A stretch of DNA of 64,000 bases from Patescibacteria group bacterium (GCA_038065735.1 JBBTQK010000003.1:64704-128703), one strand, 5' to 3'; positions 15,517-49,703 are shown, counted from the first letter of the stretch. The notes: a model not told the origin generated them from the letters alone. Numbers and translations are program-made.

Positions 15517-16134
15517 ATGAGTGCAGAAGCTGTGGGAGGGAAGAAGGATGTGGTGAATGGTGCAGGTAGATTGGACGCTGTCGAGGGAATGGGTGTTGCT
15601 GCTTGGATTCGAGCCGGAGATTCTGCTAGAGCTCAGGTTGAAGTTGCGGATGACGGTTTGAAAGCGGCTGTTGAGAGTGAGTTGCGGACTTTGTTTGGAA
15701 GTAATATTGATGAATTATTTGTTAATAGATCAAATGGTACTTTATCTGTGACTTTTAGGTTTGGCGAAGTGGATTTTCCTGAAGGGGCAAAAGTGGAAGA
15801 GGGTGTTCAAGTGGATAGTGATCATCATCATGATGGAGACGAGATTGTTAGTTTTAAGCATGTGGCTAATCTGGCATCTAATAGAGATTTTTTCGAAAAA
15901 TTATTTGCCGGGTATTCTTTATTTGGCGCAATAACTTCTGCTAAATTACTTTCTAATAAAAAGTGTGGATTTGTGTTGGATATTAATGCGATGAGGGGTG
16001 AGGCAGTGGCGGAACCTAATCTAGCGGTTGAGGCTAAAGATGGTGATGCTGGAGCCGCAATAAATGGTATTAGGAAAGGCGTTGGCTTTGGTTTGTCGGA
16101 TAGCGTCATTGATCTAAAGGATATTGTTTGGTGA
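15517..16134 (+). CDS. hypothetical acidic protein, orphan operon gene 1 (205 aa)
   Basis: Long ORF in an AT-rich genome with a promoter directly upstream. Gly/Asp/Glu/Val/Ala-rich, with no recognisable motif. Confidence 0.7.
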   Translation: MSAEAVGGKKDVVNGAGRLDAVEGMGVAAWIRAGDSARAQVEVADDGLKAAVESELRTLFGSNIDELFVNRSNGTLSVTFRFGEVDFPEGAKVEEGVQVDSDHHHDGDEIVSFKHVANLASNRDFFEKLFAGYSLFGAITSAKLLSNKKCGFVLDINAMRGEAVAEPNLAVEAKDGDAGAAINGIRKGVGFGLSDSVIDLKDIVW

Positions 16135-16167
16135 TATCGTGGTGTCTTAACTTTAATTTAAGAATTT

Positions 16168-16743
16168 ATGGCGGACAGATTTGATAGAGATAGGGATATT
16201 GATACTACTGAAATTCCATCTAGAGGAACTGGGGATTTGGCAAAATTGATTTTTGAATTAAAGTTTATAGAGAGAGCGGCTCGTGACGAAATTTTTAGTA
16301 GGATTAGTTATTTTCTTGAGCGTAAATTAGGAGGAGGTGGTTCTGAATGTGTATTTAAAATTTTGGCATTGCTTACGGATCCTGAAATTGATTTTGTTGT
16401 TCAGGGTGGCATTGTTAGTGTGTATGTGGATAAAATTAGACCACGGAATTATCAATTTGGAGCCAGGGATGATCACTCTCAAGCCATTATCGATTTGGTT
16501 AGTCAGTTGAGCGGTGATGGAGTTGAGGTTATTAATAGAGAAGAGGATGAATTTGGTACTGAAGTTATAGGATTTAAAATGCCTTTGGCAGAATTGGATA
16601 GAGGTTTCCCTATTGGTGGAGTACCTCGTGGAGGCGTTGAAGTTGTGGATGATTTTGTTGGGCAGGGAGAGGTTGGTGATATTAGGCAACGGGTTGGGGG
16701 AGCGGTTGCGCTCGGTGGTTCAGTTGGAAAAGATGTTGATTAG
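16168..16743 (+). CDS. hypothetical acidic protein, orphan operon gene 2 (191 aa)
   Basis: Starts 33 nt after gene 1 and is preceded by CTTAACTTTAATTTAAG. Gly-rich C-terminus, no recognisable motif. Confidence 0.7.
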   Translation: MADRFDRDRDIDTTEIPSRGTGDLAKLIFELKFIERAARDEIFSRISYFLERKLGGGGSECVFKILALLTDPEIDFVVQGGIVSVYVDKIRPRNYQFGARDDHSQAIIDLVSQLSGDGVEVINREEDEFGTEVIGFKMPLAELDRGFPIGGVPRGGVEVVDDFVGQGEVGDIRQRVGGAVALGGSVGKDVD

Positions 16744-16839
16744 TTCTCCCTAGGGAGGATTTGTGATCTGCAAATGGATTTAAATTTGACGATTGCTGAT
16801 TTGGTGATATTATTCTATCTTAATTTTAATTTAAACTTT

Positions 16840-17076
16840 ATGAGTGAAGTAAATCTGATTGATGACGTCCGTCCAGATTTTATTCAGCAAGCTGCCGCGA
16901 GACTTGAAGGCAAAGGTGCTGGTTATGATGATATGGACGATCCTTTAAAGCATCATCTTGTCGATACATCTGGCATTTCCAGAAGTGAAGTTACTGCAGA
17001 AAGCTATGCTGCAGAATGCGAAGATTTGAGAAGAAGGTATGCTGCATCTGCCGCAAATGGTTCTCATGTAGATTAA
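16840..17076 (+). CDS. hypothetical acidic protein, orphan operon gene 3 (78 aa)
   Basis: The ORF track opens at 16774. I prefer ATG 16840 (MSEVNLIDD) because it is preceded by CTTAATTTTAATTTAAACTTT, the box seen before the neighbouring starts. Confidence 0.55.
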   Translation: MSEVNLIDDVRPDFIQQAAARLEGKGAGYDDMDDPLKHHLVDTSGISRSEVTAESYAAECEDLRRRYAASAANGSHVD

Positions 17077-17098
17077 ATAATTATCTTAATTAAACTTT

Positions 17099-17572
17099 AT
17101 GGTAGAAATTGATGAGGGAAGTGGTTCTTGGTTGGAATACAGCACTTTGAATAGCAATGTAAAATCCAGGATCAGTGCTACTGTGCAGATGAAAGCTAGT
17201 GCTGCTGCGGCTATGGATATGTGGGCAATTCTTAATAAAGCTGGGACTGAATCTACCGATACGATTAGAGGCTCTTTAGATATTTCTTTGGATAGTAAAG
17301 CTCTTAATGATTCAGATATAGCCCTTCTGAGAAAGTTAAATGAATGTGGTGTAATTCAACTTGTTAATAATGATAGTAGTATATCTGGATTTGAGATAGA
17401 TTTGGATGCGAATAGGAGTAGTCGCGATGTTGTTGCCGATGCCTCTCCCCATGCCACTGGCGCCCTTGAAAGTAATGAAAATGTTGATTTGATGGTTGCT
17501 GATATGAGGGTGGCTGTAGCTGACAATGCAAGAAATAATGCTAAACTCCTCAGGATGTTTGGAGAAGAGTGA
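17099..17572 (+). CDS. hypothetical acidic protein, orphan operon gene 4 (157 aa)
   Basis: Starts 22 nt after gene 3, preceded by CTTAATTAAACTTT, and followed by the terminator at 17605-17643. Confidence 0.7.
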   Translation: MVEIDEGSGSWLEYSTLNSNVKSRISATVQMKASAAAAMDMWAILNKAGTESTDTIRGSLDISLDSKALNDSDIALLRKLNECGVIQLVNNDSSISGFEIDLDANRSSRDVVADASPHATGALESNENVDLMVADMRVAVADNARNNAKLLRMFGEE

Positions 17573-17604
17573 GAGCTCTAGTAGATAGTAAATTTATTCA
17601 GCAC

Positions 17605-17643
17605 AAAAAAAATCGCATCAACCTTTCGGGAGATGCGATTTTT
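17605..17643. terminator. bidirectional rho-independent terminator (orphan operon and tuf)
   Basis: AAAAAAAATCGCATC-loop-GATGCGATTTTT. A 9-bp stem plus an inner CC/GG pair, with an A-run on one side and a T-run on the other. Confidence 0.8.
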
Positions 17644-17648
17644 GAACA

Positions 17649-17662
17649 GAGCGCAAGCGCTC
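17649..17662 (-). repeat. stop-abutting palindromic hairpin (GAGCGC-AA-GCGCTC)
   Basis: Perfect palindrome 2 nt from the tuf stop, with the same core as 8478-8493. Confidence 0.6.
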
Positions 17663-17664
17663 GG

Positions 17665-18858
17665 CTATTTCAAAATCTTTGCTACTACTCCGGCACCTAC
17701 TGTACGACCACCTTCACGGATGGCGAAACGAGTACCTTCTTCAAGAGCGATAGGAGCTCCAAGAGTAATTGTCATTTTAACGTTATCACCTGGCATAACC
17801 ATTTCTACGTCAGCTGGTAATTCTACAGAACCAGTTGCGTCAGTTGTACGGATGTAGAACTGAGGTTTGTAACCTTTGAAAAATGGAGTATGACGACCAC
17901 CTTCATCTTTTGTCAAAACGTAAATTTCAGATTCGAATGTAGTGTGTGGAGTGATTGAACCTGGTTTAGCAATAACCTGACCTCTTTCGATATCATCTCT
18001 TTCAACACCACGGATAAGTAGACCAACGTTGTCTCCAGCCTGACCTCTATCAAGGCTCTTTCTGAACATTTCAACACCAGTTACTACTACTTTTCTTGTT
18101 GGACGAATACCAACGATTTCAACTTCATCATTCACATTAACCACACCCTGATCAACTCTACCAGTTGCTACTGTACCTCTACCTTTGATAGAGAATACAT
18201 CTTCAACTGACATCAAGAATGGTTTGTCTAGGATACGAACTGGATCTGGAATATATGTATCAAGTACTTCAAGAAGATCAAGAATTGGTTTGTTAGCTAC
18301 TGGATCAGCTGGGTTTTCCATAGCTTTAAGAGCTGAACCACGGATGATTGGAGTAGTGTCTCCAGGGAATCCGTATTTATTTAGAAGTTCACGAACTTCA
18401 ATTTCTGAAAGATCAGCAATATCTGGATCAGCCATGTCGATCTTATTCAAGAAAACAACAATGTAAGGAACGTTAACCTGTTTAGCAAGAAGGATATGTT
18501 CACGAGTTTGTGGCATAGGACCATCTGCAGCAGATACTACTAGAATAGCGCCATCCATTTGAGCGGCACCAGTAATCATGTTCTTAACGTAATCGGCATG
18601 ACCTGGACAATCCACGTGAGCGTAATGTCTTTTAGCTGTAACGTATTCCTGATGAGAAGTTGAGATAGTAATACCTCTAGCTTTTTCTTCTGGGGCGTTA
18701 TCAATTTGGTCGTAAGCAACACCTTTGTTGCCACCACCGAATACTGTTGCTGCTACCATCGTGATTGCAGCTGTAAGGGTAGTTTTACCATGATCTACGT
18801 GGCCAATTGTACCTACGTTCACATGGACTTTACTGCGGTCAAAAACTCCTTCTGCCAT
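17665..18858 (-). CDS. tuf: elongation factor Tu
   Basis: [18 protein letters not shown] and NKID motifs, 397 aa. Confidence 0.99.
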
Positions 18859-18916
18859 ATCATTGTTGTTTAGGGAATTAATAAATGTATATTTAGCGCT
18901 GATTTACAGCGGACGA

Positions 18917-18945
18917 ATAGTATATTATCAATTATTTATTGTCAA
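18917..18945 (-). promoter_or_regulatory. candidate internal promoter upstream of tuf
   Basis: Minus strand: TTGACA (revcomp of 18940-18945), 17 nt, TACTAT (revcomp of 18917-18922). Lies in the 91-bp fusA-tuf spacer. Confidence 0.4.
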
Positions 18946-18949
18946 TAAA

Positions 18950-21055
18950 TTATCGATTGTTTACGCCTGTTCTCTTGGTAATGATTCCTTCTGCTACGTT
19001 AGTTGGAACTTTTTCGTAATGACCGAATTCCATAGCGTAGTTACCACGACCCTGAGTCATAGATCTCAAGTCAGTAGCGTAACCAAACATCGCTCCCAAT
19101 GGGATAGTCGCCTTGATGAATTTAACTACACCTCTGTCGCCAGTTTCCTGGATCTGCCCGCGACGTGAGTTAATATCACCCATAACATCACCAAAGTAAT
19201 TTTCTGGAACTGTAACCTCAACTTTCATGATAGGTTCCAAAATAACTGGGTTAGCCTTCTTAGCCGCTTCCTGGAAACAAATTGAACCGGCAATTTTGAA
19301 CGCCATTTCTGATGAATCCACATCATGGTATGAACCATCAAGAAGTTCTGCCTTGATATCCACTATTGGGTAACCGGCCAAAATACCTTTTGTTAAAGCT
19401 TCTTTTACACCTTTGTCTACCGCAGGAATAAATTCTCTTGGAATTCTACCTCCAACTACTGAGTTCACGAATTCATAACCTTTACCTGGTTCCATTGGAG
19501 AGAATTTCATTACTACGTGACCAAACTGACCACGACCACCAGATTGTTTTGCATATTTTTCTTCACCTTCAATCTCTTTTGAAATTGTTTCACGGTAAGC
19601 TACCTGTGGAGCACCGATATTAGCTTCTACCTTAAATTCACGACGCATACGATCAACGATGATATCAAGATGTAATTCACCCATACCAGCGATAATTGTC
19701 TGTCCAGTTTCTTCATCAGTATTTACACGGAAAGTTGGATCTTCTTCAGCAAGTCTCTGTAGCGCAAAGCCCATTTTTTCCTGATCAGCTTTAGTTTTTG
19801 GTTCAACTGCGATACGGATAACTGGCTCTGGGAAAGTAATTGATTCAAGAAGAATAGGATTATTTGGATCGCAAAGTGTGTTACCAGTTGTAGTCTTTTT
19901 CAAACCTACGATGGCAGCAATATCACCAGCGTGTACTTCTTTAATTTCGTTTCTGTGGTTGGCGTGCATTTGGATCAAACGACCAATACGTTCTTGAGTA
20001 TCAGTTGAAGTGTTTAATGCGTAACTTCCGGATTGTAATTTTCCTGAGTAAACACGGATATATGTAAGTGAACCTACGAATGGATCACTTGCAATTTTAA
20101 ATGCCAAGGCACTAAATGGCTGATCAACGATCATTTTTCTTGTAATTGCTTCACCTGTATCTGGATTTGTTCCTTTAACTTCAGACAAATCTTGAGGACT
20201 TGGTAAGTAAAAACAAACTGCGTTTAATACCAACTGAGCTCCCATATTCTGCAAGGCGCTACCACAAACTACCGGGTAGATTTTGCTTACGATTGTAGCT
20301 CTACGGATAGCAGCTCTAATTTCGTCATTAGACATTTCTGCACCCTCAAGGAATTTTTCCATCAATATGTCGTCGTTTTCAGCAACTTTTTCAATCATGA
20401 TAGCGCGGAATTCTTCCACTTTATCATTCATGTCTTCTGGAATTGGAATTTCTTTATTTATTTCTCCGTTTTTACCTTCAAAAGTCCAGGCTTTTCTTTC
20501 GATCAAGTCAATTACACCTTTAAATTCTTTTTCAGCACCGATAGGTAACTGGATGGCTACTGCATTTGGGTTAAGTCTTGTGTGAATACTCTTCAAGCTC
20601 ATGTAGAAATCTCCACCAACTTTATCCATTTTGTTAATGAAGGCAACACGAGGAACGTTATATTTATCAGCCTGTCTCCAAACTGTTTCTGACTGAGGTT
20701 CCACACCCATACCACCATCGAATACTGCCACACCTCCGTCAAGTACGCGAAGTGAGCGTTCTACTTCTACAGTAAAATCTACGTGACCTGGAGTATCGAT
20801 AATGTTGATTCTATATTCTGATTTGTCATCGCATCCGATTGGAGTCCAAAAACAAGTTGTAGCCGCTGAAGTAATTGTGATACCTCTTTCCTGCTCTTGT
20901 TCCATCCAATCCATGGTTGCAGCACCTTCGTGCACTTCACCGATTTTGTAAGTTTTACCTGTGTAAAAAAGAATACGCTCTGTAACTGTTGTTTTACCTG
21001 CATCGATGTGCGCGATAATTCCGATATTACGTAATTTGCTGAGATCTTCGGCCAT
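18950..21055 (-). CDS. fusA: elongation factor G
   Basis: [17 protein letters not shown] and NKMD motifs, 701 aa. Confidence 0.99.
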
Positions 21056-21149
21056 GGTATTGGGAAATTAAAATTTAAATAAAATGTTGTGCGTCAATTT
21101 GGATTTCGACGCAGGGAGATTATATGTTTTGAATGGCTTAAGTCAAGGC

Positions 21150-21548
21150 TTAACTCTTTTTTGAGAAATCTCTTCTGCCAGCGATTAATAGGCCTAGAGT
21201 TGTCAGGGTTAGAATAAGGCTAATTAGAAATTCTTGGCTGAGGATTTGTTTGCCGTAGTTAGCCAAAAGCATAGCGAACAACACAAGTGGAATAATGGTA
21301 AAGATTAGCCCTGTAATGAATGACCAACGTTTTAGTTTTATGAGATAGTACCCGATTATTGTGCTGAGTACACCCTCGATTATGCTAATGGTGTAAAGCG
21401 TCTCCTCAATTCCAGAAAGCAATTCTTCCGGATTAACAGGTTTGCCCATTTCGACAACTAAATTTATGGTTCCGCTAATTAGCATAAGCAAACCACTAAC
21501 TAAAAGAATGAGTGCGGCGATTTTGATGGCAGCGGATGGAGTTTTCAT
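21150..21548 (-). CDS. hypothetical small membrane protein (about 4 TM segments)
   Basis: Hydrophobic ORF. I prefer the start at the ATG giving MKTPSAAIKIAALILL (21548), which avoids overlap with the divergent msrB start. The ORF track extends to 21593. Confidence 0.55.
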   Translation of the reverse strand: MKTPSAAIKIAALILLVSGLLMLISGTINLVVEMGKPVNPEELLSGIEETLYTISIIEGVLSTIIGYYLIKLKRWSFITGLIFTIIPLVLFAMLLANYGKQILSQEFLISLILTLTTLGLLIAGRRDFSKKS

Positions 21549-21587
21549 AAATTTTGTTAAATTTGAGAATAAAGTTATACTGATTTT

Positions 21588-21950
21588 ATGCAATTAAATG
21601 ATTTAACACCAGAGGAAGAGCGGGTAATTGTTGGGAAGGGGACTGAAGGGGCTTTTACTGGTGAATATACAGATACTTTTAGAGATGGTGTGTATGTTTG
21701 TCGACGTTGTGATGCGCCGCTTTATACTTCGGATAGTAAATTTCATTCGGGATGTGGCTGGCCGAGTTTTGATCAGGAAATTCCTGGGGCAGTTAAGAAT
21801 ACTACGGATGCGGATGGCAGGCGTACAGAGATTACTTGTATGAATTGTGGCGGGCATCTCGGGCATGTTTTTACGGGAGAATCTTTTACGGAAAAAAATG
21901 TGCGACACTGCGTGAATTCAATTTCTTTAAAATTTATTCCTAAAAAATAA
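21588..21950 (+). CDS. msrB: peptide-methionine (R)-S-oxide reductase
   Basis: [16 protein letters not shown] and CGGHLGHVF motifs. Confidence 0.93.
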
Positions 21951-21951
21951 T

Positions 21952-22479
21952 ATGGAAACTGTAGTTTTAGGTGGAGGCTGTTTTTGGTGTACGGAAGCGA
22001 TTTTTCAGCAGTTGAGGGGAGTTGTGAAGGTGACTTCAGGATATGCCGGTGGAGAATTTAAAAATCCCGGATATTATGATTTGGCAATGGGTAGAGCTGA
22101 TCAGGCAGAAGTGATTAAAGTAGAATTTGATCCTGCTGTGATTACGTTGCGAGATTTGTTGGATGTATTTTTTCACACACATAATCCGACTACGGTTAAT
22201 CAACAGGGTGCGGATAAGGGACCGGCTTATCGCTCGGTAATTCTTTATACTAGTCCTGAGCAAAAGGGGATTGCGGAGAATTTGATTGCAGAATTGGGGC
22301 GGTCAGGAGAATTTGGAAATCCGATTGTGACTGATGTGGAGCCTTTGGGAGAATTTTATGAAGCGGAAGAGGAACACCAAAGTTATTATGAACGGAATTC
22401 GTACCTGCCTTATTGCGAAGTCGTGATTTCACCGAAGCTGGCTAAGTTGCGGGAGAAATATAGGGAGAAGTTGAAGTAG
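21952..22479 (+). CDS. msrA: peptide-methionine (S)-S-oxide reductase
   Basis: GGGCFWCTEA active-site motif. Starts 1 nt after msrB. Confidence 0.93.
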   Translation: METVVLGGGCFWCTEAIFQQLRGVVKVTSGYAGGEFKNPGYYDLAMGRADQAEVIKVEFDPAVITLRDLLDVFFHTHNPTTVNQQGADKGPAYRSVILYTSPEQKGIAENLIAELGRSGEFGNPIVTDVEPLGEFYEAEEEHQSYYERNSYLPYCEVVISPKLAKLREKYREKLK

Positions 22480-22487
22480 GGATTGGG

Positions 22488-22805: not shown

Positions 22806-22896
22806 ATTACGGACTTATTTAGAAGTTTTGATTCTAGCCTTAGGGCAGTAAGTAAGTCAATGATTTGCTTTGGTATATTCTTTGTTGTACTTTGTG

Positions 22897-22916
22897 TTTT
22901 CGGACCGGTCCGAAAA
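22897..22916. repeat. 20-nt perfect palindrome TTTTCGGACCGGTCCGAAAA, copy 1
   Basis: Read directly from the sequence. A second copy lies at 23745-23763. It shares the TTTCGG/CCGAAA arms with the REP-like element hairpins. Confidence 0.85.
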
Positions 22917-23612: not shown

Positions 23613-23744
23613 ATGCTTACATGCTAGCTTAAAATGTGGATGCCGACAACTTTAGTTATATCAAATAGACATTAAATAATTATTAAATTTTCTTAAAATC
23701 TTTTCAGGTTGGTTTGCGAATTCCTATATTTATTGCAGTTTAAG

Positions 23745-38745: not shown

Positions 38746-38879
38746 ATTTTTAGTTTTTAAATCTTGTACAGTTTAGCACGATTTTAAGAAAATTTAATAA
38801 TTATTTAATGTTTAGTTGCTAGGCTATGTTGTTGCTGTGGATTTTTTACGAGAGTTTCCTTGCCCCGGAGTACGTATTA

Positions 38880-38888
38880 TGTTATAAT
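38880..38888 (+). promoter_or_regulatory. extended -10 promoter (TGtTATAAT) for the His-rich protein gene
   Basis: Part of CGTATTATGTTATAATTTATGTGT (38873-38896), 22 of 24 nt identical to 35287-35310. Confidence 0.55.
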
Positions 38889-38914: not shown

Positions 38915-39427
38915 ATGAGACAAGAACCAACTTTGAGTTTTCGTCAGATCCTGAGCGGTAACTTAGACCATAGTGATATTTCGTATGATGAATTAAACCC
39001 TGTTGTGAGGGGAGAAGTTGATAGATTAGTATCGACAGCAGTTGGTGTGGAAAATTTAGATGAACTTCTTGGTGACAGAGATGTAGACGTGGTTATTAAT
39101 CAGGTAGTTGCTGGTATGTCGGTAGCTTTGGGATTCAAAGATAGCCGTGATGATCACGGGCACGGTGGTCATGGTAGTACTCATGGTCATGATGATCATG
39201 GAGATGCCTGGCACGATACTCATGAACCACATGGCCATGGTGATACTCATGGGCATGGTGATACTCATGGGCATGGTGATACTCACGGGCATGGTGATAC
39301 TCATGGGCATGGTGATACTCATGGTCATGATGATACTCACGGGCATGGTTCACATGGACATGAAAATGAGGGAGTTGGATATGTTCCTACTATCAGAAAT
39401 TGGAAAAACAATCCTAGTGTTCAGTAA
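38915..39427 (+). CDS. acidic histidine-rich protein with tandem HGHGDT repeats (candidate metal-binding protein)
   Basis: Start at ATG 38915 (MRQEPTL), downstream of the promoter. The C-terminal half reads HGHGGHGSTHGHDDHGDAWHDTHEP(HGHGDT)x5... Confidence 0.7.
   Translation: MRQEPTLSFRQILSGNLDHSDISYDELNPVVRGEVDRLVSTAVGVENLDELLGDRDVDVVINQVVAGMSVALGFKDSRDDHGHGGHGSTHGHDDHGDAWHDTHEPHGHGDTHGHGDTHGHGDTHGHGDTHGHGDTHGHDDTHGHGSHGHENEGVGYVPTIRNWKNNPSVQ
39230..39337 (+). repeat. six tandem copies of an 18-bp unit (CATGGGCATGGTGATACT) inside the His-rich gene
   Basis: Read directly. Units start at 39230, 39248, 39266, 39284, 39302 and 39320, with 0-3 substitutions each. Confidence 0.9.
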
Positions 39428-39741: not shown

Positions 39742-41520
39742 ATGGAATTTAATGAAATTGAATCACGTGATGGAGGTTTAGATAAATACAGAAGTGATCT
39801 GAAAAATTTATTTGAATCAAATGAAGATGGGAATGATGTTTTATTAAGAAATCTTAAGGACATATTAACCGGATTTGATATTCTTAAAAAACAGAGTTTG
39901 TATCAGGCTACAGTTAAAGAAGTCGAAGATTTTAATGAAAAAAATGGACCGATTTTAACTGTTCAGGAAGTTTTTAGTTGGATTTTGGATAGTGAATCAC
40001 TGGCCGTAGAGGAAATTACAAAAATTACCTACCTAGAAAATAGTAGAGAAAAAGAAAAAGAAACTGCGGAATTTAAATTTGATGAGTCAATTCCTAATGT
40101 GAAAAATGTTGAGCAATTGGGATCCTTGAAGGATTCCTTTGCTAGTTTTTTAAAAATTGTGAAAGGTTCGAAATCAACTAAAATAAATGTTACTGCATTA
40201 AGTGAGTTTTTTTCTTTTATTACTGATACGTGTGAAATTCATCCAAGCTTAGAGTCTATGTTTATAAATATCGTTAATGAAAGAACTAAAGATTTACAAG
40301 AATCTAAAGGAAAAGAAGATTTAGTTGTAAAGGTATTGATTTCCTCTCTTAAAAATCGTGCGAATAGAAGTTCATTTAGTAGCTCAGGTTTCCAATTTGA
40401 TGAAGAAACAATAAAGACCAGAGTTTTAACAGACTATAAAAGAGAACAAGAAGCAAAAACTTCGGAAGATAAAGAATTAATGTCGAACGTCGATGGAAGA
40501 ATTAAAGGCGTAACGGTTGTTTTAGGTATGAAGGTGCGTGATGGATATACAGATATAGCAGGAGAGTATTACAATACGATTTTTGATCTTATTGAAGCTA
40601 AAAAAGGAGAAAAAGATTTTATTCTTAAATGTGTTTACGTTGAAAAGAGTGAGAAAGAAAATTTTACAAAGTATATGAGGGCAAGAAATGTTGATTTTTC
40701 AAAAATAGTGTTTTTGAATGCTGGAGATGTGGAATATAGCCATAGGTATGATATTTGGGCGAGAGATTCGGCTGTGAGACGTAAGGATGGAGTTATTATT
40801 GAACCATTTAATAATTATGCCGATGGTGTAACTGCTGCTTACGCTAATTTGATTCCAATAGAAGGAACTGATATTCAGCAGTCTGAACTTGTTTTTGAGG
40901 GAGGCAATATGAGGGCAACGGATAAGTATCTTTTTATTGGTGTTGATGATATTTACAAAACTATGGGTAATCCGAAACTTAAACTTGCAAGTCAAGAAAT
41001 GGTAATTAGCCTTTTTGAAAAGCAATTTAACAAAAAAGTGATTGTTTTAGGTGACTCTGAGGGTGGACAGGATGTTTTTCACATAGACATGTGTATAACT
41101 CCACTGAATGATAAAGATATTCTTGTGGCTGAACCAATCGATGGGAGTATGTACGCTCCATTTATGATTAATATAAGTCAGCAACTTGCAGAGCAGGGGT
41201 TTAATGTAATTAAGGTTCCGTATTTTAGTCATGGAAGCTTTCATGCAACATATAACAACGCTCTTCTTGAAAATTATAAAGATGAAAGTGGTAAGGAAGT
41301 AAAAAAGGTTTATCTTCCCCAGTATTATGCTGGCTCAGAGGGTTCTCCAGTTTATACTTATGGAGCTGGTGGTGGTACTGTTTTAGATTTAAATAAAATG
41401 AATAAAGCTGCAGTAGAGATTTATAGGTCTCAGGGTTTTGAAGTAGTGCCGATCAATGTTTCTGTCTCCGTAATCAGGCGTTCGGGATCCTTAAATTGTC
41501 TGACTTTTGAAGATAGATAA
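39742..41520 (+). CDS. 592-aa protein with an unknown N-terminal region and a C-terminal guanidino-group-modifying-enzyme-like domain (agmatine/arginine deiminase or amidinotransferase superfamily)
   Basis: Ordered motifs IWARDS, FEGGN, FHIDMC and a C-terminal GSLNCLT. They resemble the W-x-R-D, EGG, H-x-D and G-G-x-x-C-x-T blocks of that superfamily as I recall them. Confidence 0.55.
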   Translation: MEFNEIESRDGGLDKYRSDLKNLFESNEDGNDVLLRNLKDILTGFDILKKQSLYQATVKEVEDFNEKNGPILTVQEVFSWILDSESLAVEEITKITYLENSREKEKETAEFKFDESIPNVKNVEQLGSLKDSFASFLKIVKGSKSTKINVTALSEFFSFITDTCEIHPSLESMFINIVNERTKDLQESKGKEDLVVKVLISSLKNRANRSSFSSSGFQFDEETIKTRVLTDYKREQEAKTSEDKELMSNVDGRIKGVTVVLGMKVRDGYTDIAGEYYNTIFDLIEAKKGEKDFILKCVYVEKSEKENFTKYMRARNVDFSKIVFLNAGDVEYSHRYDIWARDSAVRRKDGVIIEPFNNYADGVTAAYANLIPIEGTDIQQSELVFEGGNMRATDKYLFIGVDDIYKTMGNPKLKLASQEMVISLFEKQFNKKVIVLGDSEGGQDVFHIDMCITPLNDKDILVAEPIDGSMYAPFMINISQQLAEQGFNVIKVPYFSHGSFHATYNNALLENYKDESGKEVKKVYLPQYYAGSEGSPVYTYGAGGGTVLDLNKMNKAAVEIYRSQGFEVVPINVSVSVIRRSGSLNCLTFEDR

Positions 41521-41524
41521 CGGC

Positions 41525-42817: not shown

Positions 42818-42909
42818 GTTTGAAAGTTAATCTGTTAATTATTGCCTAAGCGGCTTTTATTGCGTGATTTATCCTAATTTGGAATCGATTTTTAGTAAAG
42901 AGGGAGATT

Positions 42910-43338
42910 TTAGCTGGTAATCATTTGTAGATATTCTCCTGGTAACAGAATTTTTGTTGGTAAATTTGCCTTTTCAAGCTTTGTGGTTTTAAAGTCTTTT
43001 TTATCTAAAGTAATCAAAAAATCGGCTTTCTGATTGATGCTGCTAATGAGTATTGGGAGGTCTTTTTCAATGATTAGATCCTGATATTTTATTTTTAAAT
43101 CTGTTGAGTGAGCTTCTTTATCAATCTGATTAAGCAAGCTGACTAGTTTGTAGAATTCCGGTAGAAATTCTACTCCAACTTTTCTCTCAATATTTAATTT
43201 TGCTTCTTTAATGGCATATAGACTTGATACTAATATATGTTTTTTATTTTTAGCTAGTTCAAAAATGGCTCTGGAACCTCCAGTTTTTGAATAAGTAGCA
43301 GCAAAAAAGATGTTGGCGTCTAAAAATAGTTTGTACAT
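42910..43338 (-). CDS. PIN-domain toxin (VapC-like)
   Basis: The N-terminal FLDANIFF and C-terminal ITLDKKDF acidic residues are typical of PIN nucleases. Lies 5 nt downstream of the antitoxin gene. Confidence 0.75.
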   Translation of the reverse strand: MYKLFLDANIFFAATYSKTGGSRAIFELAKNKKHILVSSLYAIKEAKLNIERKVGVEFLPEFYKLVSLLNQIDKEAHSTDLKIKYQDLIIEKDLPILISSINQKADFLITLDKKDFKTTKLEKANLPTKILLPGEYLQMITS

Positions 43339-43343
43339 CTGAG

Positions 43344-43601
43344 TTAATTTTTGATAAGTTTTGCTAATTTTTCTGCCGTTTTTTTGTCCAGTTTATCTTC
43401 TTTTAACCAGATTTGAATATCTTCGTCTGAATAAATTTCAGTGGTATCTGGCTTGTAGTCTATTTTGATAAAAGAAATGCCGTTACTTAGCAGTTTTACT
43501 TCTAATAAACTATTTTCATCAATATTTAATTTTTGCCTGAATTCTACTGGAATAGTGACCATGCCTTTTGATTGAGGTTTTACTATTTTAGTTGGAGACA
43601 T
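43344..43601 (-). CDS. AbrB/SpoVT-type antitoxin
   Basis: The GMVTIPVEFRQKLNI swapped-hairpin motif. 85 aa, immediately upstream of the PIN gene. Confidence 0.7.
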   Translation of the reverse strand: MSPTKIVKPQSKGMVTIPVEFRQKLNIDENSLLEVKLLSNGISFIKIDYKPDTTEIYSDEDIQIWLKEDKLDKKTAEKLAKLIKN

Positions 43602-43720
43602 AGTGGTGAAGTTAGGAAGTGGTAAATGTCTACTTATAGAATAGCGGAATTGTAGCGTTTTGTAAAGAATGTTGTAGGTAGGCTTGTTTTATTGTAGAGT
43701 GCTGCCTTAAATTAAAAATT

Positions 43721-44101
43721 ATGAAGCAAATATTAGAAGATGGTGAAGGGCGGAAGTATGAATTTTTTGATAGCGATCATGATGGGAAGTTGGCATTACT
43801 CCAGTGGGAGGGTCGTATTGAGGAATTGGATGTAGAAATTGCAAATAGAATAGCAGCTTTGTTAAATATTGAATGTACAAGTAGACCAATGACCGCTCAA
43901 GAGTTAAGGGAGTATTTAGATGGATTGGTCGGAGAGAGATTTGTTTTGTCTAATAACAACTACGAGCTTGTTGGGCAGGTTATTGTAGTAGATTCAGTTG
44001 AACTTGATGATATAACTTTAACAATTGAAACCAAAATAGACGAACTTACTGATAATTTGTTACTTCAAATAACTCCAACAGTTCCTCTTCTACCAATGTA
44101 G
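43721..44101 (+). CDS. hypothetical acidic protein (126 aa)
   Basis: ORF preceded by CTTAAATTAAAAATT, with a G-skewed coding strand. No motif recognised. Confidence 0.6.
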   Translation: MKQILEDGEGRKYEFFDSDHDGKLALLQWEGRIEELDVEIANRIAALLNIECTSRPMTAQELREYLDGLVGERFVLSNNNYELVGQVIVVDSVELDDITLTIETKIDELTDNLLLQITPTVPLLPM

Positions 44102-44102
44102 T

Positions 44103-44666
44103 CTACCCGTTGGCTTTGCTTACGTAGCTGCCGTCTTCGGTGTTGATTTTGATGATGTCGCCTTCTTCAATAAAAAGAGGGGCGCGGACAGTAGCACCAG
44201 TTTCAATGACAACGTCTTTTGCTCCACCCGTAGCGGTATCTCCTTTAGTTCCTGGAGGTGAGCTAATAACTTTGAAGTCCATTTTTGGAGGTAGTTGAAT
44301 ACTTACCGGAACACTATCGATGTACATTGCGTAGCATTCTGTATCGTCAATTAGATATTTTATACCATCGCCAACTGTTTCTTTGTCCAAGGCAAATTGT
44401 TCGTAGGTAACGTTATCCATGAAATTATAATCTGTACCATCTGTATATAAATATTGGCATTTGTTTCTGACAACATCTACTGTTTCTACGGCTTCACCTG
44501 ATTTAAAAGTGATTTCGATAACTTGGCCAGTGCGTAGGTTGCGAAGTTTAGCTCTTGTAAAAGCCGCGCCCTTACCTGGATTTACGAATTGGGCCTGAGC
44601 TACAAGCCAAGCGCCGTTTTTAAAATTGATTGCGATACCCTGTTTAATGTCTTGTGTGCTGCCCAT
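44103..44666 (-). CDS. efp: elongation factor P
   Basis: 187 aa with the NPGKGAAFTRAKLRNL loop, carrying the modifiable Lys in a PGKG context. Confidence 0.95.
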   Translation of the reverse strand: MGSTQDIKQGIAINFKNGAWLVAQAQFVNPGKGAAFTRAKLRNLRTGQVIEITFKSGEAVETVDVVRNKCQYLYTDGTDYNFMDNVTYEQFALDKETVGDGIKYLIDDTECYAMYIDSVPVSIQLPPKMDFKVISSPPGTKGDTATGGAKDVVIETGATVRAPLFIEEGDIIKINTEDGSYVSKANG

Positions 44667-44673
44667 GAAAATT

Positions 44674-45705
44674 TTAGTTAATGTATTTGGCTAACGGAAA
44701 AAGTATTACTTCTTCAATTGATTTCTTATCCAAGAGTAGCATAAAAAGTCTGTCGAGACCTAGAGCTATTCCCGCGCAAGGAAACTGGATCGATTCTAGA
44801 CTAGCCAGAAATTCCTCGTCAATATCAAAAACAGTTTTGTTTAGTTGGCGACGGAGGTTTTGCTCTTCCATCAGGCGTTCTCGCTGTTCTTTGGAATCTA
44901 TAAGTTCGGAGAATGAATTGGCGAGTTCGGTGCCGCCGATATAGAGCTCAAAACGTTCTGCGAAGAATGGATTTGTGGTTGATTTTTTTGCTAGTGCAGC
45001 TTGGCTGACTGGATAGTCGTAGACGAAAATAGGTCTATCTTTAGGCAAATTTGGCTCTATGTGATTTAAGAAAATTTTGAAATAAATGTCGTCCCAGTTT
45101 TCACAACCGTTAGTGTCGTAGTTTTTAGATTCGGCAGATTTTTTGAGTTCTTCAAATTCTTTATTTTGCAGAAGGTCTATGCCGCAGTATTCCTGGAAAA
45201 GTTCATTAGTTGTTTTGCGTGGCCAGGGTGTGGTGAGGTCGATTTTAGTATTTTGGTAATTGAGAATTTTTGCAGAATTGTCCTGTGATTGGCTTTTTAC
45301 TAATTCTAAAACTAAACTTTCGCAATCTTGCATTATGTCTTTGTAGTCAGCTTTTTCGCGGTACCACTCGATCATTGAGAATTCCGGATTGTGCAGGTCG
45401 CCGCCAACTTCTCCATTTCTAAAAACTTTAATGATGTCAAAAATATTGCCAAAACCCGCTCCGAGCAGTTTTTTTAATTGTAATTCCGGAGAAGTATTTA
45501 AGTATAAATTTATTGTAGAATTTTGCTCGGTTTTGAGATGAGAAGGTAGCGTGAATTTTGTTTCAAAAGGTGTCAAATATGGCTCCATGCCGGGGATTGT
45601 GACCATGATTGGAGTTTCAACTTCTGTGAAATTGCGTGCATTAAAAAAATCACGAACTTTTTGCATGAGTTGGGAGCGCTGTTTGGCTAATTCTTTATTG
45701 AGCAT
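44674..45705 (-). CDS. epmA: EF-P lysine ligase-like class II aaRS paralog (EpmA/GenX/PoxA-like)
   Basis: 343 aa, a LysRS-type catalytic core without an anticodon-binding domain. Motif 2 is FRNGEVGGDLHNPEFSMIEWY and motif 3 is GIALGLDRLFMLL. Adjacent to efp. Confidence 0.75.
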   Translation of the reverse strand: MLNKELAKQRSQLMQKVRDFFNARNFTEVETPIMVTIPGMEPYLTPFETKFTLPSHLKTEQNSTINLYLNTSPELQLKKLLGAGFGNIFDIIKVFRNGEVGGDLHNPEFSMIEWYREKADYKDIMQDCESLVLELVKSQSQDNSAKILNYQNTKIDLTTPWPRKTTNELFQEYCGIDLLQNKEFEELKKSAESKNYDTNGCENWDDIYFKIFLNHIEPNLPKDRPIFVYDYPVSQAALAKKSTTNPFFAERFELYIGGTELANSFSELIDSKEQRERLMEEQNLRRQLNKTVFDIDEEFLASLESIQFPCAGIALGLDRLFMLLLDKKSIEEVILFPLAKYIN

Positions 45706-45814
45706 TTTTGAATATATTTGCTGCGGGATTATAGGTGAAATAGCCGGTTTTGCAAAATCGCTTGTTTTTGGGGTTAAATTGGAATATTTTTCGTTCTTAA
45801 ATTAAAAAATTATT

Positions 45815-46555
45815 ATGGCAGGAAAAATGGAAGAACAGCAGGTGGAAGCTTTTGAAGAAGTACATGCGGTAGTTAGTCAAAGAATAAGTGGTCATAGAAG
45901 TCCTACAAGTGGGGCAACAGAGGAGGATTGTTTAGTTTTTGAACATCCTGATGAGGGGGTGCCATTATCTGATGATAATGTCCATGATGTGGTGCGGCTG
46001 TTTGCTGATACTGATGGAGGTAAAAAAGAATTGATTGCTACATCTTCTGAAGTGTCTTGGAAAACTATACCTCTCCACCCTCGTTCTAGGCCTTTGGCTG
46101 CAATAAGGTATTTTGATACGGAAGCTTTTCCATGGAATGAAGCTACTTTGCTGTTGGATCCTAGTAAAAAATTAAGTGTTAATGTTGATGGTGAATTAGA
46201 TTATGGCAGAGTTACTAATGACGATATTAGCAGGGGTATTGGAGAGAGAGGTATCTCAACTTTGGGTTTTGGTAGAATTAGGCATTATGGAGATTTTTTA
46301 ACTATGAATAGCGCATTAACACGTGCAATGGAGTCTCAACTGGTTGATGGAACACTTGAGTTAATAACTGCTTTGTTACGAAAATGGGAGACTGAAACAG
46401 GTCTAAACCCTACCGAATGGTCGGCTGGTGTCAGCGGTATTATTCAAAGAGTTCAAGCTAGGAGAGATAGAATTATGTCTATTGATTTTGATAAAGATCA
46501 AAAAAAAACTAGAGGTTCTAGGGTGTTTGAATACGATTGCCATGGAGGATATTAA
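45815..46555 (+). CDS. hypothetical acidic protein (246 aa)
   Basis: ORF preceded by CTTAAATTAAAAAATT, with a G-skewed coding strand. No motif recognised. Confidence 0.6.
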   Translation: MAGKMEEQQVEAFEEVHAVVSQRISGHRSPTSGATEEDCLVFEHPDEGVPLSDDNVHDVVRLFADTDGGKKELIATSSEVSWKTIPLHPRSRPLAAIRYFDTEAFPWNEATLLLDPSKKLSVNVDGELDYGRVTNDDISRGIGERGISTLGFGRIRHYGDFLTMNSALTRAMESQLVDGTLELITALLRKWETETGLNPTEWSAGVSGIIQRVQARRDRIMSIDFDKDQKKTRGSRVFEYDCHGGY

Positions 46556-46576
46556 AGTTTTCTGAAGGATGTTTGC

Positions 46577-47242
46577 CTATTTAAGGTAATGAATAAGAAG
46601 GTTTTTGTTTTTGAGTAATGCTACCGCTGGAAATTCTGCGATGGATTTTTTGCCTTGTTTGAGGGTTTCTAGGACGGATTTTTTGTCCTGACCTTTTATT
46701 AAAACTAAAATATTTTTGCTTTTAAGAATTGTTGGGAGAGTTAGAGTTAGGCGATGATTAATTGCGAATTCATCGGTTTGAGTGTGGGCGACTGTGTCTT
46801 TGGAATTCAAGGCTTCGCAGTGAGGAAAAAGTGAGGCGATGTGTCCGTCTGGACCGATGCCAAGTATAGTTAGATCGATAATTTTTGGTAAACTTTTTGC
46901 GTACTTTGCTAGGGATTTTTTAATTGGTATGGAAGTGTCAAAATGAGTAAATTTTATGCCGTGGTTTTTGATCAATGTTTCTTTGATCATTTTTTGGTTT
47001 GAATCTGGATGATCGGCTGGCACATAACGTTCATCGACCTGATAAAAATGTATTCTTTTGCATTCATCTTTGGTAAGTTTTTTTTCAAGAATGTCGTAAA
47101 CGGGTTTTGGTGTAGAGCCTCCGCTTAGGGCAATATTGCAGTTTGGAGTTTCTTTGCAAATTCTAAAAATAACGTGGGTAGTTTTTTTAATAAAATCGTC
47201 TTCGTCTGTGAATGTTATTACTTTCATTTTAGTGGATATCAA
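46577..47242 (-). CDS. pgl: 6-phosphogluconolactonase
   Basis: 221 aa, ALSGGSTP motif and the DERYVP pattern of the NagB/Pgl family. Overlaps the zwf stop by 14 nt. Confidence 0.85.
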   Translation of the reverse strand: MISTKMKVITFTDEDDFIKKTTHVIFRICKETPNCNIALSGGSTPKPVYDILEKKLTKDECKRIHFYQVDERYVPADHPDSNQKMIKETLIKNHGIKFTHFDTSIPIKKSLAKYAKSLPKIIDLTILGIGPDGHIASLFPHCEALNSKDTVAHTQTDEFAINHRLTLTLPTILKSKNILVLIKGQDKKSVLETLKQGKKSIAEFPAVALLKNKNLLIHYLK

Positions 47243-48635
47243 ACCATTTATGTCCGTCCATTGCTGTCAGTTTGTTTTGAGAATTTGGGCCTTCGGTGCC
47301 GTCTTTGTAGATTTCGAGTTTTGGCTTTTTTTGAGCACGGAATTTTTGAATGGAATCTGTTAATTCCCAGGTTGCGATAATTTCCTGGAAGCTTAAGAAG
47401 TGTAATCGGCGTTTTTGTAGAACGTCTAAAAGTAGTTGGGCGTTTTCTGGCAGGCATTCATCTCCGGAACAAGCGATAGAATCGGAAGTTGTGATGGTTT
47501 GTGATTGCATTGAATCGCCTTGTTTGTTGATGAGTCTGATGCTTAATCTTTCATCTGGTTGTAGTTCAAAAATCAGGCGATTTGGTTCTTCGTCAGGTGG
47601 TTGGAAGGCGAATTTTTTTAGTTCTACAACTATATAAGTATGTTTTTCGTGTAATTTTTTACCCGTACGAATGTAGATTGGAGTTTTGTACCAACTTTCT
47701 CTATCGATAAAAAGTCTTAGAGCTGCAAAGGTTTCTGTTTGAGAATTTTTTGGCACGTCAGTTTCTTTTTTGTAACCCTGATATTGGCCTAGCACTAAAT
47801 TCTCTTTATTCTCAATAAATTTTAAGGCTGAAAGAATGCTGTATTTTTCACGATGCAAACTTTCTGGATTTTCAGTGATTGGGATGGACATTGTAATAAG
47901 CGCAAGAATTTGAAGAAGGTGAGACTGAATCATATCTTTCATTGTGCCAACCTGATCGAAATATCCGGCACGCATGTTCACGCCAATTTTTTCAAAAGCG
48001 GTGATTTGGATGTTGGAAATTTCCGGACCTTTCATCATGATGTTGAGCAGGCGATTGCTGTGGCGAAGGTGAAGAAGGCTTTGTACAGCGGATTTACCGA
48101 GGTAATGGTCTAGCAGGTAAATGTTTTGTTCTTCAAAATAACGGGCGGTAAAGTGGAAAAGATCGTTGGCGGAATGAGTGTCTTTGCCAAAGGGTTTTTC
48201 GATAATCAGGCGCAGGTCTTCGTTTTTTGAAGGTTGAGTTTCGCCAAGATTCTTAATGATATCTTTAAAAACAACTGGTGGAACTGAGAAATAAGCCAGT
48301 TTTGTCTCGAATTTTAGGGCTTTTAAATATTCTCTAAGTTTTTGGAAATCTTTGATGTCGTCGTATTGTCCAGAAAAATATGAAACTTTGCCGCTCAGAT
48401 CTTTGAGAATTTTTGCGTCAGTTTTTGTTGCTGATTTTATGCTTTCTTCGAACTCTTTTTGAAATTCTTTATTGGACATTTTTGTCCTTGCATACCCCAC
48501 AATCTGAAATTTCTCAGGTAATTTTTTTTGTTCCATCAAGCTATACAAAGCTGGAAAAAGTTTGAGCTTTGCAAGATCACCAGACGCACCAAAAATTACG
48601 AGAGTGAAGGGCTTATTGATTTGAGTTTTTTTCAT
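47229..48635 (-). CDS. zwf: glucose-6-phosphate 1-dehydrogenase
   Basis: IFGASGDLA, EKPFG and DHYLGK motifs. Confidence 0.95.
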   Translation of the reverse strand: MKKTQINKPFTLVIFGASGDLAKLKLFPALYSLMEQKKLPEKFQIVGYARTKMSNKEFQKEFEESIKSATKTDAKILKDLSGKVSYFSGQYDDIKDFQKLREYLKALKFETKLAYFSVPPVVFKDIIKNLGETQPSKNEDLRLIIEKPFGKDTHSANDLFHFTARYFEEQNIYLLDHYLGKSAVQSLLHLRHSNRLLNIMMKGPEISNIQITAFEKIGVNMRAGYFDQVGTMKDMIQSHLLQILALITMSIPITENPESLHREKYSILSALKFIENKENLVLGQYQGYKKETDVPKNSQTETFAALRLFIDRESWYKTPIYIRTGKKLHEKHTYIVVELKKFAFQPPDEEPNRLIFELQPDERLSIRLINKQGDSMQSQTITTSDSIACSGDECLPENAQLLLDVLQKRRLHFLSFQEIIATWELTDSIQKFRAQKKPKLEIYKDGTEGPNSQNKLTAMDGHKWFDIH

Positions 48636-48726
48636 AGGTTGGATGTTGCTTATTATAAGGCTTAGCTGAGTGCTTTTACAATTAGATTTATTCTCAGTTT
48701 TAGCCTTTACAGAGTCCTTGCTTTTT

Positions 48727-48735
48727 TGATAAAAT
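48727..48735 (+). promoter_or_regulatory. extended -10 promoter (TGaTAAAAT) for 48753 gene
   Basis: Lies 17 nt upstream of ATG 48753, implying a very short leader. Confidence 0.4.
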
Positions 48736-48752
48736 ATTGTCTAACTTTGTTT

Positions 48753-49703
48753 ATGAGTGAGGAGCAAAAAGATTTAGTTGGCCAATTTTTAGCACCGGGC
48801 AGTGGGTGTCCATATCATAAGGTTCAATATCAGGCTGCTCTAAGGGAGGGCACGGATAATCAGCTTACGGAAAGGGCCGTAGCCTCAATTCCTACGATAG
48901 AGCAATTCTGGAGAAATCTTTCTTTAAGGCGTGAGTCTTTTGAGGTGGACTTAAGTGGAGATAGTGATGTTGTGTCTGGGATGATTAATGCGGTTCAGTC
49001 TTTTGTCGGACCGGATTTCGTTACAGCTATAAATATTGTTTCGGCTGATCCAGCGCAAATGTCTAGCATAGTGAAATTGCAATCAGGTTTAGTGCTTGAA
49101 AATGATACTCCTGAAAATTTTTTGAAGCATAATATTCAGCAGGGAGATATAGTAGTTTTTGATTTTGTGGAACTGGTTTTTAAATATGTCCGAGATCATC
49201 AGAAATCTGGGATGACTTTGGATTTGGATAATTTGAGAAAATTTGCGAACGGTAATATCAAGAAGTTGTGTTATGAAATTGCATGCAGAAATGCTTTAAG
49301 AGAGCATGCTTTGTTGGATGCTGTAACAGTTGCTTATCCGGGTAGAAGACGTTTGTTAGATGTGAATTCACTTGAAGAGTATAATTCTGATAGAGGATTG
49401 GATTTACGTCTTACTGCTCCGGCGTATGCTAAATTTCACGGTTTATTTGAAGAATATAATAGAGGTGTATGGAATTCTCCTGGAAAATGTCCAGCAAGTG
49501 AGGCTTATGGTTTGGAGACTACGGTTCTTTTGGAGTATCTTGATTGGCTTTTTGAATTAACTTCAAACTATTATTTTCCTGAAATGCTTAGAAGGCATGA
49601 AGACCCCTATTTACAAACAATTGCCGACCTGGAGACTTTAACTAGAAATGTTGTAGAGCGATCTAAACAGAGAGTACGTTATGGTGGAGGATTTCAGTTT
49701 TAG
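48753..49703 (+). CDS. hypothetical protein (316 aa)
   Basis: Start chosen at ATG 48753 (MSEEQKD); the ORF track opens at TTG 48726, inside the promoter. No motif recognised. Confidence 0.6.
   Translation: MSEEQKDLVGQFLAPGSGCPYHKVQYQAALREGTDNQLTERAVASIPTIEQFWRNLSLRRESFEVDLSGDSDVVSGMINAVQSFVGPDFVTAINIVSADPAQMSSIVKLQSGLVLENDTPENFLKHNIQQGDIVVFDFVELVFKYVRDHQKSGMTLDLDNLRKFANGNIKKLCYEIACRNALREHALLDAVTVAYPGRRRLLDVNSLEEYNSDRGLDLRLTAPAYAKFHGLFEEYNRGVWNSPGKCPASEAYGLETTVLLEYLDWLFELTSNYYFPEMLRRHEDPYLQTIADLETLTRNVVERSKQRVRYGGGFQF

Follow-up and report, generated by a model that had tools for sequence, protein, structure and literature searches.

Do genes that resemble each other in base composition and amino acid usage form a gene class? 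This question is raised by eight open reading frames (ORFs) in a 64,000-nucleotide (nt) stretch of the genome of a Patescibacteria group bacterium (contig C3, C3:64704-128703), called the window in the following, within which ORF positions are counted. A preliminary description had pointed out these ORFs, numbered here c1 to c8 in coordinate order (Table 1), as G-rich, C-poor, acidic or lysine-poor genes without recognisable domain, placed in gaps between minus strand core genes, and had suggested a lineage-specific class rather than random ORFs. ORF calling in the window found all eight on the plus strand, and the described look was confirmed with a coding-strand GC skew of +0.20 to +0.51, 1.1-5.9 % Lys, 13.5-20.6 % Asp+Glu and an isoelectric point (pI) of 4.15-5.44. 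The genes are real and lineage-specific; that they form a class was not supported, as no mutual similarity was found and the skew was a property of the strand. We consider it probable that the look shared by the eight genes is explained by the known strand asymmetry and that they are ordinary orphan accessory genes and no special class.

Genome-Wide Strand Asymmetry and the G-Rich Look of the Eight Genes

The genome comprises 1.41 Mb in 14 contigs with 38 % GC. Its seryl-tRNA synthetase is 70-79 % identical to proteins of metagenome-assembled genomes of Candidatus Peribacteria or Peregrinibacteria, and the organism is therefore a bacterium of the Peribacteria/Peregrinibacteria group of the Candidate Phyla Radiation (CPR). 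Genome-wide, 1333 ORFs were obtained with a greedy longest-ORF script, which is a crude caller and not a curated annotation. Genes of at least 100 amino acids (aa) were divided into those with a G-rich coding strand (G strand, 605 genes) and the others (C strand, 591 genes). The GC skew at third codon positions (GC3 skew), referred to the plus strand, kept a single polarity along each of the 14 contigs, and on contig C3 it amounted to +0.16 to +0.49 in 12 of 12 bins of 20 kb. The coding skew was +0.279 +/- 0.095 for G-strand genes (GC3 skew +0.386) and -0.015 +/- 0.117 for C-strand genes (GC3 skew -0.260), a difference with a p-value of about 1e-178 in the Mann-Whitney U test. Analyzing the composition gene by gene, all plus strand genes of the window were found G-skewed regardless of their function, including those for msrB (+0.33, GC3 skew +0.66), msrA (+0.38, GC3 skew +0.74) and an HGSNAT-like acyltransferase (+0.36). 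Three further plus strand genes, at 39742, 55841 (55904 in the preliminary description) and 58785, had been described as a compositional contrast to the candidates. This contrast held for Lys (7.9-9.2 %) and for their lower GC only, since these genes were equally skewed (+0.32, +0.25 and +0.36) and also acidic (pI 5.0, 5.5 and 6.4).

Compared with the 605 G-strand genes, the skew of c1 to c8 ranked at percentiles 99, 99, 18, 63, 46, 67, 71 and 52. The eight had been presented as unusual in composition; six of them were within 1 standard deviation (SD) of the G-strand mean, and only c1 (+2.2 SD) and c2 (+2.5 SD) stood out. In these two the excess G was located at codon positions 1 and 2 (first-position G 0.51 and 0.48 versus a mean of 0.35), with average G at position 3. 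Gly, Ala, Asp, Glu and Val together make up 48-51 % of the residues of both proteins (51 % in c1, with a coding skew of +0.485), and the outlying skew is due to this protein composition. Thus, the G-skew of the candidates is an imprint of the strand and not a property of the genes. The asymmetry itself is very strong and strand-fixed and would be of the replication-associated GC-skew type. According to a passage in PMC4736985, complete Peribacteria genomes display a standard GC-skew curve with origin and terminus. A strong G/C strand disparity in other CPR lineages is described in PMC7143001, where a general account of GC skew is also given.

Two side observations concern the asymmetry. The S10-spc-alpha ribosomal protein cluster together with tuf, fusA and rpoBC (window 1-33148, minus strand) is on the C-rich strand, and the relatives' loci examined all had this essential block on the C-rich strand as well. 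The gene dnaA and a 16S rRNA fragment are on the G-rich strand (C5:120725-121210 and C5:258471), dnaA lying in mid-contig with no skew switch around it. Either the essential block of the Peribacteraceae is located on the lagging strand, or the rule that the G-rich strand is the leading one fails here. Moreover, a few "ORFs" with a GC of 0.58-0.70 and almost no Lys were encountered in these genomes of 38-45 % GC, namely C2:24066-25802, C5:87727-88428 and C3:42807-43226 in this genome and similar ones at L023:12441-13022, L024:11377-12009 and L033:2438-3025 in relatives. Probably no proteins are encoded here and the frames merely overlie structured RNA genes of high GC; the alternative is DNA of truly foreign origin. 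These, and not the eight candidates, are the true compositional outliers of this genome.

Low Lysine and Acidity Among Genes of the G Strand and Genes Outside Pfam

Proteins encoded on the G strand contained more Val (1.28-fold), Arg, Asp, Gly and Glu and less Thr (0.75-fold), Ile, Pro, Gln and Lys than those of the C strand, and acidic proteins accounted for 67 % on the G strand versus 47 % on the C strand. For the contribution of orphan genes, 268 genes of 100-450 aa from contig C3 and the first 160 kb of C8 were compared with Pfam (E<=1e-5), leaving out genes that cross the 20-kb fetch boundaries; orphan status is thus defined by Pfam alone, for 268 of the 1196 genes of at least 100 aa. Using this definition, 89 genes (33 %) belonged to no Pfam family. 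On the G strand, Pfam-less genes, not counting the eight candidates, had fractions of 0.072 Lys and 0.146 Asp+Glu, compared to 0.084 and 0.129 for genes with a Pfam family. The corresponding values on the C strand were 0.079 and 0.127 without and 0.107 and 0.114 with Pfam family, where part of the Lys difference must come from Lys-rich ribosomal proteins in the Pfam set. On both strands pI and GC content at third codon positions (GC3) were also lower in Pfam-less genes (p-values of 0.03 to 4e-5). Accordingly looking genes without Pfam family were found elsewhere on the G strand (e.g., C3:20350, 28328, 60705, 180478, 194308; C8:26006, 49882) and, minus the G-skew, on the C strand (e.g., C3:34179, 35811, 36801, 217451, 224793). 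With a definition set post hoc (Lys<0.06, pI<5.5, Asp+Glu>=0.13), 74 of 1196 genes had this look, with the G strand contributing 49 of its 605 genes and the C strand 25 of its 591. Among the 268 genes compared with Pfam, no significant excess of orphans on the G strand was detected, and no genome-wide preference is claimed (44 of 111 versus 45 of 157 Pfam-less, p=0.066; without the candidates 36 of 103 versus 45 of 157, p=0.34). In the candidates the ratio Arg/(Lys+Arg) was 0.43-0.78 versus 0.33, and Lys appears to be replaced by Arg as judged from the sequences; a change from Lys to Arg with AGR codons would fit a G-enrichment on this strand.

We propose the following explanation. The eight are unrelated accessory ORFans at junctions of ancient, conserved, co-directional core genes, and strand asymmetry has imprinted on them, as on all genes oriented in this way, the G-rich, C-poor look. 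Two sources probably account for the low Lys, the use of Arg instead and the acidity. The first is the general tendency of the Pfam-less genes of this genome. The second, as judged from composition, would be a mutation pressure towards G on proteins under weak constraint, in which AAA would change to AGA or GAA and an excess of GNN codons would bring in Gly, Ala, Asp, Glu and Val.

Variable Junctions Between Core Genes in Relatives

The distribution of the candidates was followed in a family set of 56 genomes from 30 genera, with this genome included as the only member of its genus. In agreement with the lineage-specific nature suggested in the preliminary description, presence was narrow or nil in the 55 other family genomes and in large protein libraries. 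For c1 and c7 only self-matches were found in the 56 genomes, and scans of genome contigs and metagenome contigs gave no relative of c7. In a word-indexed library of 5.8 billion proteins c2 and c8 matched only themselves, and no homologue of the N-terminal 85 residues of c5 was found in the protein-library search. When 1.84 billion representatives were scanned in full with HMMER, 3 remote homologues of c8 with similar length were obtained (E-values of 5e-21, 7.7e-6 and 7.8e-4). Together with c8 they share an invariant C-P-A motif and form a small, divergent, patchy family. A c8 profile matched 4 of 201 genomes of the order including this one; the other 3 were among the 28 genomes of a different family, while its own family gave 0 of 51. 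A locus search with the single c8 homologue P0003 gave no related loci. Within the order, c6 matched 2 of 201 genomes, this one and a member of another genus. The homologue there (locus L025, E=1.2e-8) occupies the corresponding efp-serS gap and is encoded on the opposite strand, making c6 the only candidate with a syntenic homologue. The c6 homologue had a skew of +0.47 in a strongly skewed host genome, and the c8 homologues of the other family, found in a different context, had skews of +0.10 to +0.13 in weakly asymmetric genomes. Hence, skew follows genome and strand and not the gene family.

Next to the genes themselves, the gaps that they occupy were compared. According to the coordinates, tuf and rpsJ are about 160-320 bp apart in six relatives (G009, G002, G007, G013, G015, G006), 0.7-5.2 kb apart in 8 other relatives and 2.4 kb apart in this genome. 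The genes epmA, efp, serS and the TIM-barrel gene directly adjoin each other in loci L026 and L031, as do gnd, zwf, pgl and serS in L021. In 8 relatives the tuf-rpsJ gap was filled, and six of these gaps contained opposite-strand ORFs of 139-385 aa with a skew of +0.31 to +0.42, a Lys fraction of 0.029-0.054 and an Asp+Glu fraction of 0.11-0.19. The gap of G028 held an opposite-strand ORF of 556 aa with ordinary Lys plus a co-directional ORF, that of G022 four co-directional, Lys-rich ORFs of low GC. Among these ORFs and c1-c4, 0 of 55 pairs exceeded a shuffle z of 3. The serS block of 10 relatives' loci, which are kin and not independent samples, contained 28 non-conserved ORFs, 20 on the opposite strand and 8 co-directional; they differed in skew by strand (+0.39 versus -0.16, p=6e-7) and not in Lys or Asp+Glu. 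Clearly, the candidates sit at junctions of core-gene blocks that vary among genera. As a side observation, a toxin-antitoxin pair is inserted between serS and efp (42910-43601, minus strand), made up of a protein with a PIN domain (PIN_3, 26.1 bits, below the threshold) and an antitoxin of the MazE/AbrB type (31.3 bits), and a PIN-like pair is also part of the tuf-rpsJ gap of relative G008. These pairs indicate that the same junctions gather mobile accessory modules.

Several observations weigh against strand asymmetry and orphan status as the full explanation. Lys-poor, acidic opposite-strand ORFs recur in the tuf-rpsJ slot of six further genera, a recurrence that we cannot ascribe to chance. 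Finally, the candidates were Lys-poorer than the 36 other G-strand Pfam-less genes (0.035 versus 0.072, p=0.0016), and 9 of the 16 G-strand genes of the window had the look defined post hoc above, compared to the 49 of 605 genome-wide, both comparisons being biased by the fact that the genes had been chosen for this trait and the definition was made afterwards. The Lys difference suggests that strand and orphan status alone do not fully account for the low Lys.

A rival explanation, to which we attach a small probability, would be young or fast-turnover genes at junctions that repeatedly make or replace G-strand ORFs, de novo or by divergence beyond recognition, with GNN-rich sequence giving acidic proteins rich in Gly, Ala and Val. 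The recurrent ORFs of the tuf-rpsJ slot with their lack of pairwise similarity, the richness of c1 and c2 in Gly, Ala, Asp, Glu and Val, and the failure to find homologues for most candidates in any library searched speak for it. In a wider form, which we regard as similarly unlikely, the core-gene junctions of the Peribacteraceae, most clearly tuf-rpsJ, would be cradles or turnover sites that give rise to unrelated GNN-rich, acidic, Lys-poor proteins across genera, and de novo birth or ultra-fast divergence would be steered by the mutation bias of the strand. The four tightly spaced genes c1-c4 with their shared start-region repeats and native codon periodicity, however, have the look of an established operon, and the homologues of c6 and c8 are old. 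Furthermore, a chance ORF of 200 codons is very unlikely at this composition (our own estimate, not a computed value), and intermediate forms were not seen among the gaps. We favor accessory ORFans shaped by strand asymmetry over genes newly born at the junctions.

Gene Products, Start Regions and the Lack of a Common Signature

Could the eight nevertheless be a true functional class, such as effectors of episymbiotic CPR bacteria or other host-interaction proteins, whose composition is under selection? We hold this to be quite improbable. Such a class would be in line with the Lys content, for which all eight ranked between the 0th and 21st percentile of the G-strand genes, with their clustering within 34 kb and with the absence of known domains, in which the preliminary description was right. 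The curated Pfam cutoff was reached by 0 of 8 candidates, with two sub-threshold matches (SseB_C for c4, 17.8 bits versus a cutoff of 22.5, and GPIID_WHD, 19.8 bits), and 0 of 8 matched PHROGs, NCBIfam or PADLOC at E<=0.01. Other results spoke against it. Using phmmer (E<=1), each candidate matched itself only among the 1333 ORFs, and an all-against-all comparison of the candidates and the relatives' gap ORFs gave the same lack of mutual similarity. Signal-peptide-like or transmembrane segments were found in 0 of 8 candidates (top 19-residue Kyte-Doolittle means of 0.64-1.49), the sole hydrophobic N-terminus being that of c3 upstream of its likely true start. Moreover, acidic, Lys-poor, Pfam-less genes are present on both strands genome-wide, and the relatives' opposite-strand gap ORFs are not consistently Lys-poor. 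The candidate products are most likely soluble cytoplasmic proteins with differing functions, as predicted from their sequences. AlphaFold2 modelling of c8 reached a mean pLDDT of 34.7 with the single sequence and 45.6 with an alignment of 4 sequences, too low for a fold search, and the top ESM Atlas feature scores of 0.76 for c7 and 0.83 for c1 came with a structural TM of at most 0.36, which the calibration of that tool places at chance level.

Upstream regions did not unite the candidates either. Extended -10 elements with very short leaders had been described for those candidates with a located promoter-like site. Two such promoter-like sites were found as consensus matches only, TTGCCC-17-TGTTATAAT at 38860-38888 (plus strand), 26 nt upstream of the ATG at 38915 of c5, and TTTACA-18-TGATAAAAT ending at 48735 before c8, but they are not distinctive, as such elements also precede the genes at 39742, 55904 and 58785. 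In total 32 promoter-like sites were counted, compared to 31.7 in shuffled sequences. Genome-wide and on both strands, the hexamers TAATTA, AATTAA, CTTAAA and ATTTAA were 4-7-fold enriched in the 25 nt before starts, while no Shine-Dalgarno-like word was among the top 25 enriched hexamers of this region, which suggests a translation initiation independent of Shine-Dalgarno. A CTTAA..TTAA motif was present at 12 % of starts versus 3.4 % of the background and is found ahead of c2, c4, c6 and c7 as well as at the internal c3 start. Examples of such A/T-rich start regions are 16143-16167, 17082-17098, 43701-43720 and 45793-45814. Both the extended -10 and the CTTAA motif thus occur genome-wide, and no candidate-specific upstream motif was found.

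Two further intergenic elements were observed. A word of about 31 nt, ATTTTAAGAAAATTTAATAATTATTTAATGTC, occurs at 20 places of the genome including the window copy with 90-100 % identity. Copies are found in the window at 38780-38830 (plus strand) and 23659-23700 (minus strand) and on contigs C1, C2, C4, C5, C6, C8, C10, C11 and C12, and also in the relatives G010, G012, G014 and G015. They are always intergenic and oriented to a gene, often a small one (60-140 aa), one copy being located upstream of c5, and an extended -10-like TGnTAT follows about 5 nt further on. The element resembles a conserved cassette with a strong promoter or UP element. The second element, a stretch of 50 nt between rpsJ and c1 (15380-15430), is 79-88 % identical in at least 7 other genera, whatever the content of the tuf-rpsJ gap. 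It probably serves the S10 operon as promoter or leader and had no match in Rfam.

Native Protein-Coding Genes

To evaluate the coding nature of the ORFs, a codon model was built from long G-strand genes and compared with models of the antisense and out-of-frame readings. Set against native G-strand genes with lengths of 100-350 aa, the codon scores of the eight ranked at the 49th to 96th percentile (c1 83rd, c2 96th); relative to 132 G-strand shadow ORFs they were at the 99th percentile or higher. Three-base periodicity was strong, with G at codon position 1 far above positions 2 and 3. The eight ORFs are genuine protein-coding genes with a narrow distribution.

Capture from a higher-GC partner had been offered as a possible origin, here considered as a capture from a partner or host with partial amelioration since. 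The overall GC of 5 of the 8 is above the genome mean (0.40-0.43 versus 0.38), with GC raised at codon positions 1 and 2, and the high Arg/(Lys+Arg) ratio given above speaks in the same direction. The following features argued against it, and we rate a capture as very unlikely. The candidates' GC3 of 0.24-0.30 (6th to 43rd percentile) was below the G-strand mean of 0.319. G was raised but not C, which at first codon positions was at or below average in 6 of 8. Arg is encoded mostly by AGR rather than CGN (pooled CGN/Arg of 0.25 versus 0.37 in native G-strand genes), while CTN/Leu and the codon scores were native, and the GC3 skew agreed with the local strand. No tRNA was found in the window, no integrase-like ORF was seen, flanking direct repeats were absent, and the sole repeats at 15150-17750 were internal start-region repeats. 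Among the libraries searched, no homologue came from a higher-GC organism. Spurious ORFs in non-coding spacers, as which most of the eight might be taken for their lack of homologues and the low AlphaFold2 confidence, are hardly credible in view of codon scores above 99-100 % of the shadow ORFs, the strong periodicity, the existing homologues of c6 and c8, the native start-region motifs and the finding that no Rfam family reached the gathering score anywhere in the 64-kb window.

Features of the Eight Genes and Their Neighborhood

Positions and main features are summarized in Table 1. As named in the preliminary description, the gaps are bordered by minus strand core genes, identified by Pfam as S10, EF-Tu, seryl-tRNA synthetase, EF-P, an EpmA-type class II synthetase, pgl, zwf and gnd. 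The genes c1-c4 form a tight run (15517-17572) in which 33, 30 and 22 nt separate successive genes, and c5 is placed between the TIM-barrel gene and serS.

Table 1. Positions of the eight ORFs and of the genes bordering the c1-c4 run, counted within the window.
Feature	Position	Strand	Description
c1	15517-16134	+	205-aa orphan; first of a four-gene run between rpsJ and tuf
c2	16168-16743	+	191-aa orphan; skew +0.513, maximum among the eight; Arg/(Lys+Arg) 0.70
c3	16774-17076	+	100-aa ORF
c4	17099-17572	+	157-aa orphan; end of the four-gene run; convergent with tuf
c5	38915-39427	+	170-aa His-rich protein; longest ORF from 38891
c6	43721-44101	+	126-aa acidic protein, pI 4.15; between PIN/MazE pair and efp
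c7	45815-46555	+	246-aa orphan; between epmA and pgl
c8	48753-49703	+	316-aa protein; between zwf and gnd; longest ORF from TTG 48726
rpsJ	14910-15236	-	Pfam; flanks the c1-c4 run
tuf	17665-18858	-	Pfam; flanks the c1-c4 run

For c3, a second copy of the 35-nt c2 start region at 16800-16834 makes the ATG at 16840 the probable true start (78 aa). This repeat (repeat families D1 and D2) puts a c2-type start element ahead of the internal ATG. The 78-aa form had no Pfam match. For c5 the promoter-like site described above favors the start at 38915 over 38891. An 18-nt tandem repeat (6.7 copies, 92 % match) at 39230-39349 encodes (HGHGDT)n, and 25 His are found in the 178 residues of the ORF from 38891. 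Judged by these features c5 is probably a histidine-rich metal binder, its repeat being a likely metal-binding tail on an N-terminal domain that has no homologue.

Comparison With Known Systems

Histidine-rich metal binders include Hpn and the His stretches of HypB and SlyD. Like these, c5 carries clustered His, in its case within the repeat-encoded tail. Unlike them, it matches no family of Pfam, PHROGs, NCBIfam or PADLOC, and its N-terminal domain stands alone.

For orphan genes of CPR bacteria the frame is given by Ca. Peribacter riflensis, where, according to a passage in PMC4736985, a confident functional assignment was obtained for 52 % of the genes only. The candidates resemble other ORFans of CPR/Patescibacteria in lacking a domain and in their narrow or nil distribution, in a genome where a third of the sampled genes is Pfam-less. 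They differ in being concentrated, within the window, opposite a long conserved block of core genes, and this placement is the reason for their uniform look. The variable junctions of the block, especially the tuf-rpsJ slot, would provide a defined site for studies on the origin and turnover of CPR orphan genes as soon as further genomes of this genus exist.

Strand asymmetry reportedly shapes codon and amino acid usage in Borrelia burgdorferi and Treponema, and Rocha is said to have spoken of universal replication biases. This genome shares with such cases a strand-fixed G excess that is strongest at third codon positions, and G-strand proteins with more Val, Gly, Asp, Glu and Arg and less Thr, Ile, Pro, Gln and Lys. 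It differs in its nearly unbiased gene orientation (605 versus 591) and in having the ribosomal protein/rpoBC/tuf cluster on the C-rich and dnaA on the G-rich strand. In strongly asymmetric genomes, unrelated genes of the same orientation look alike in composition and may pass for a gene class or for DNA of foreign origin, and this likeness implies that strand normalisation is needed when "islands" or "effector classes" of CPR genomes are called from composition. The look of the eight genes probably arises in the ordinary way from known strand asymmetry together with the many orphan genes of CPR bacteria.

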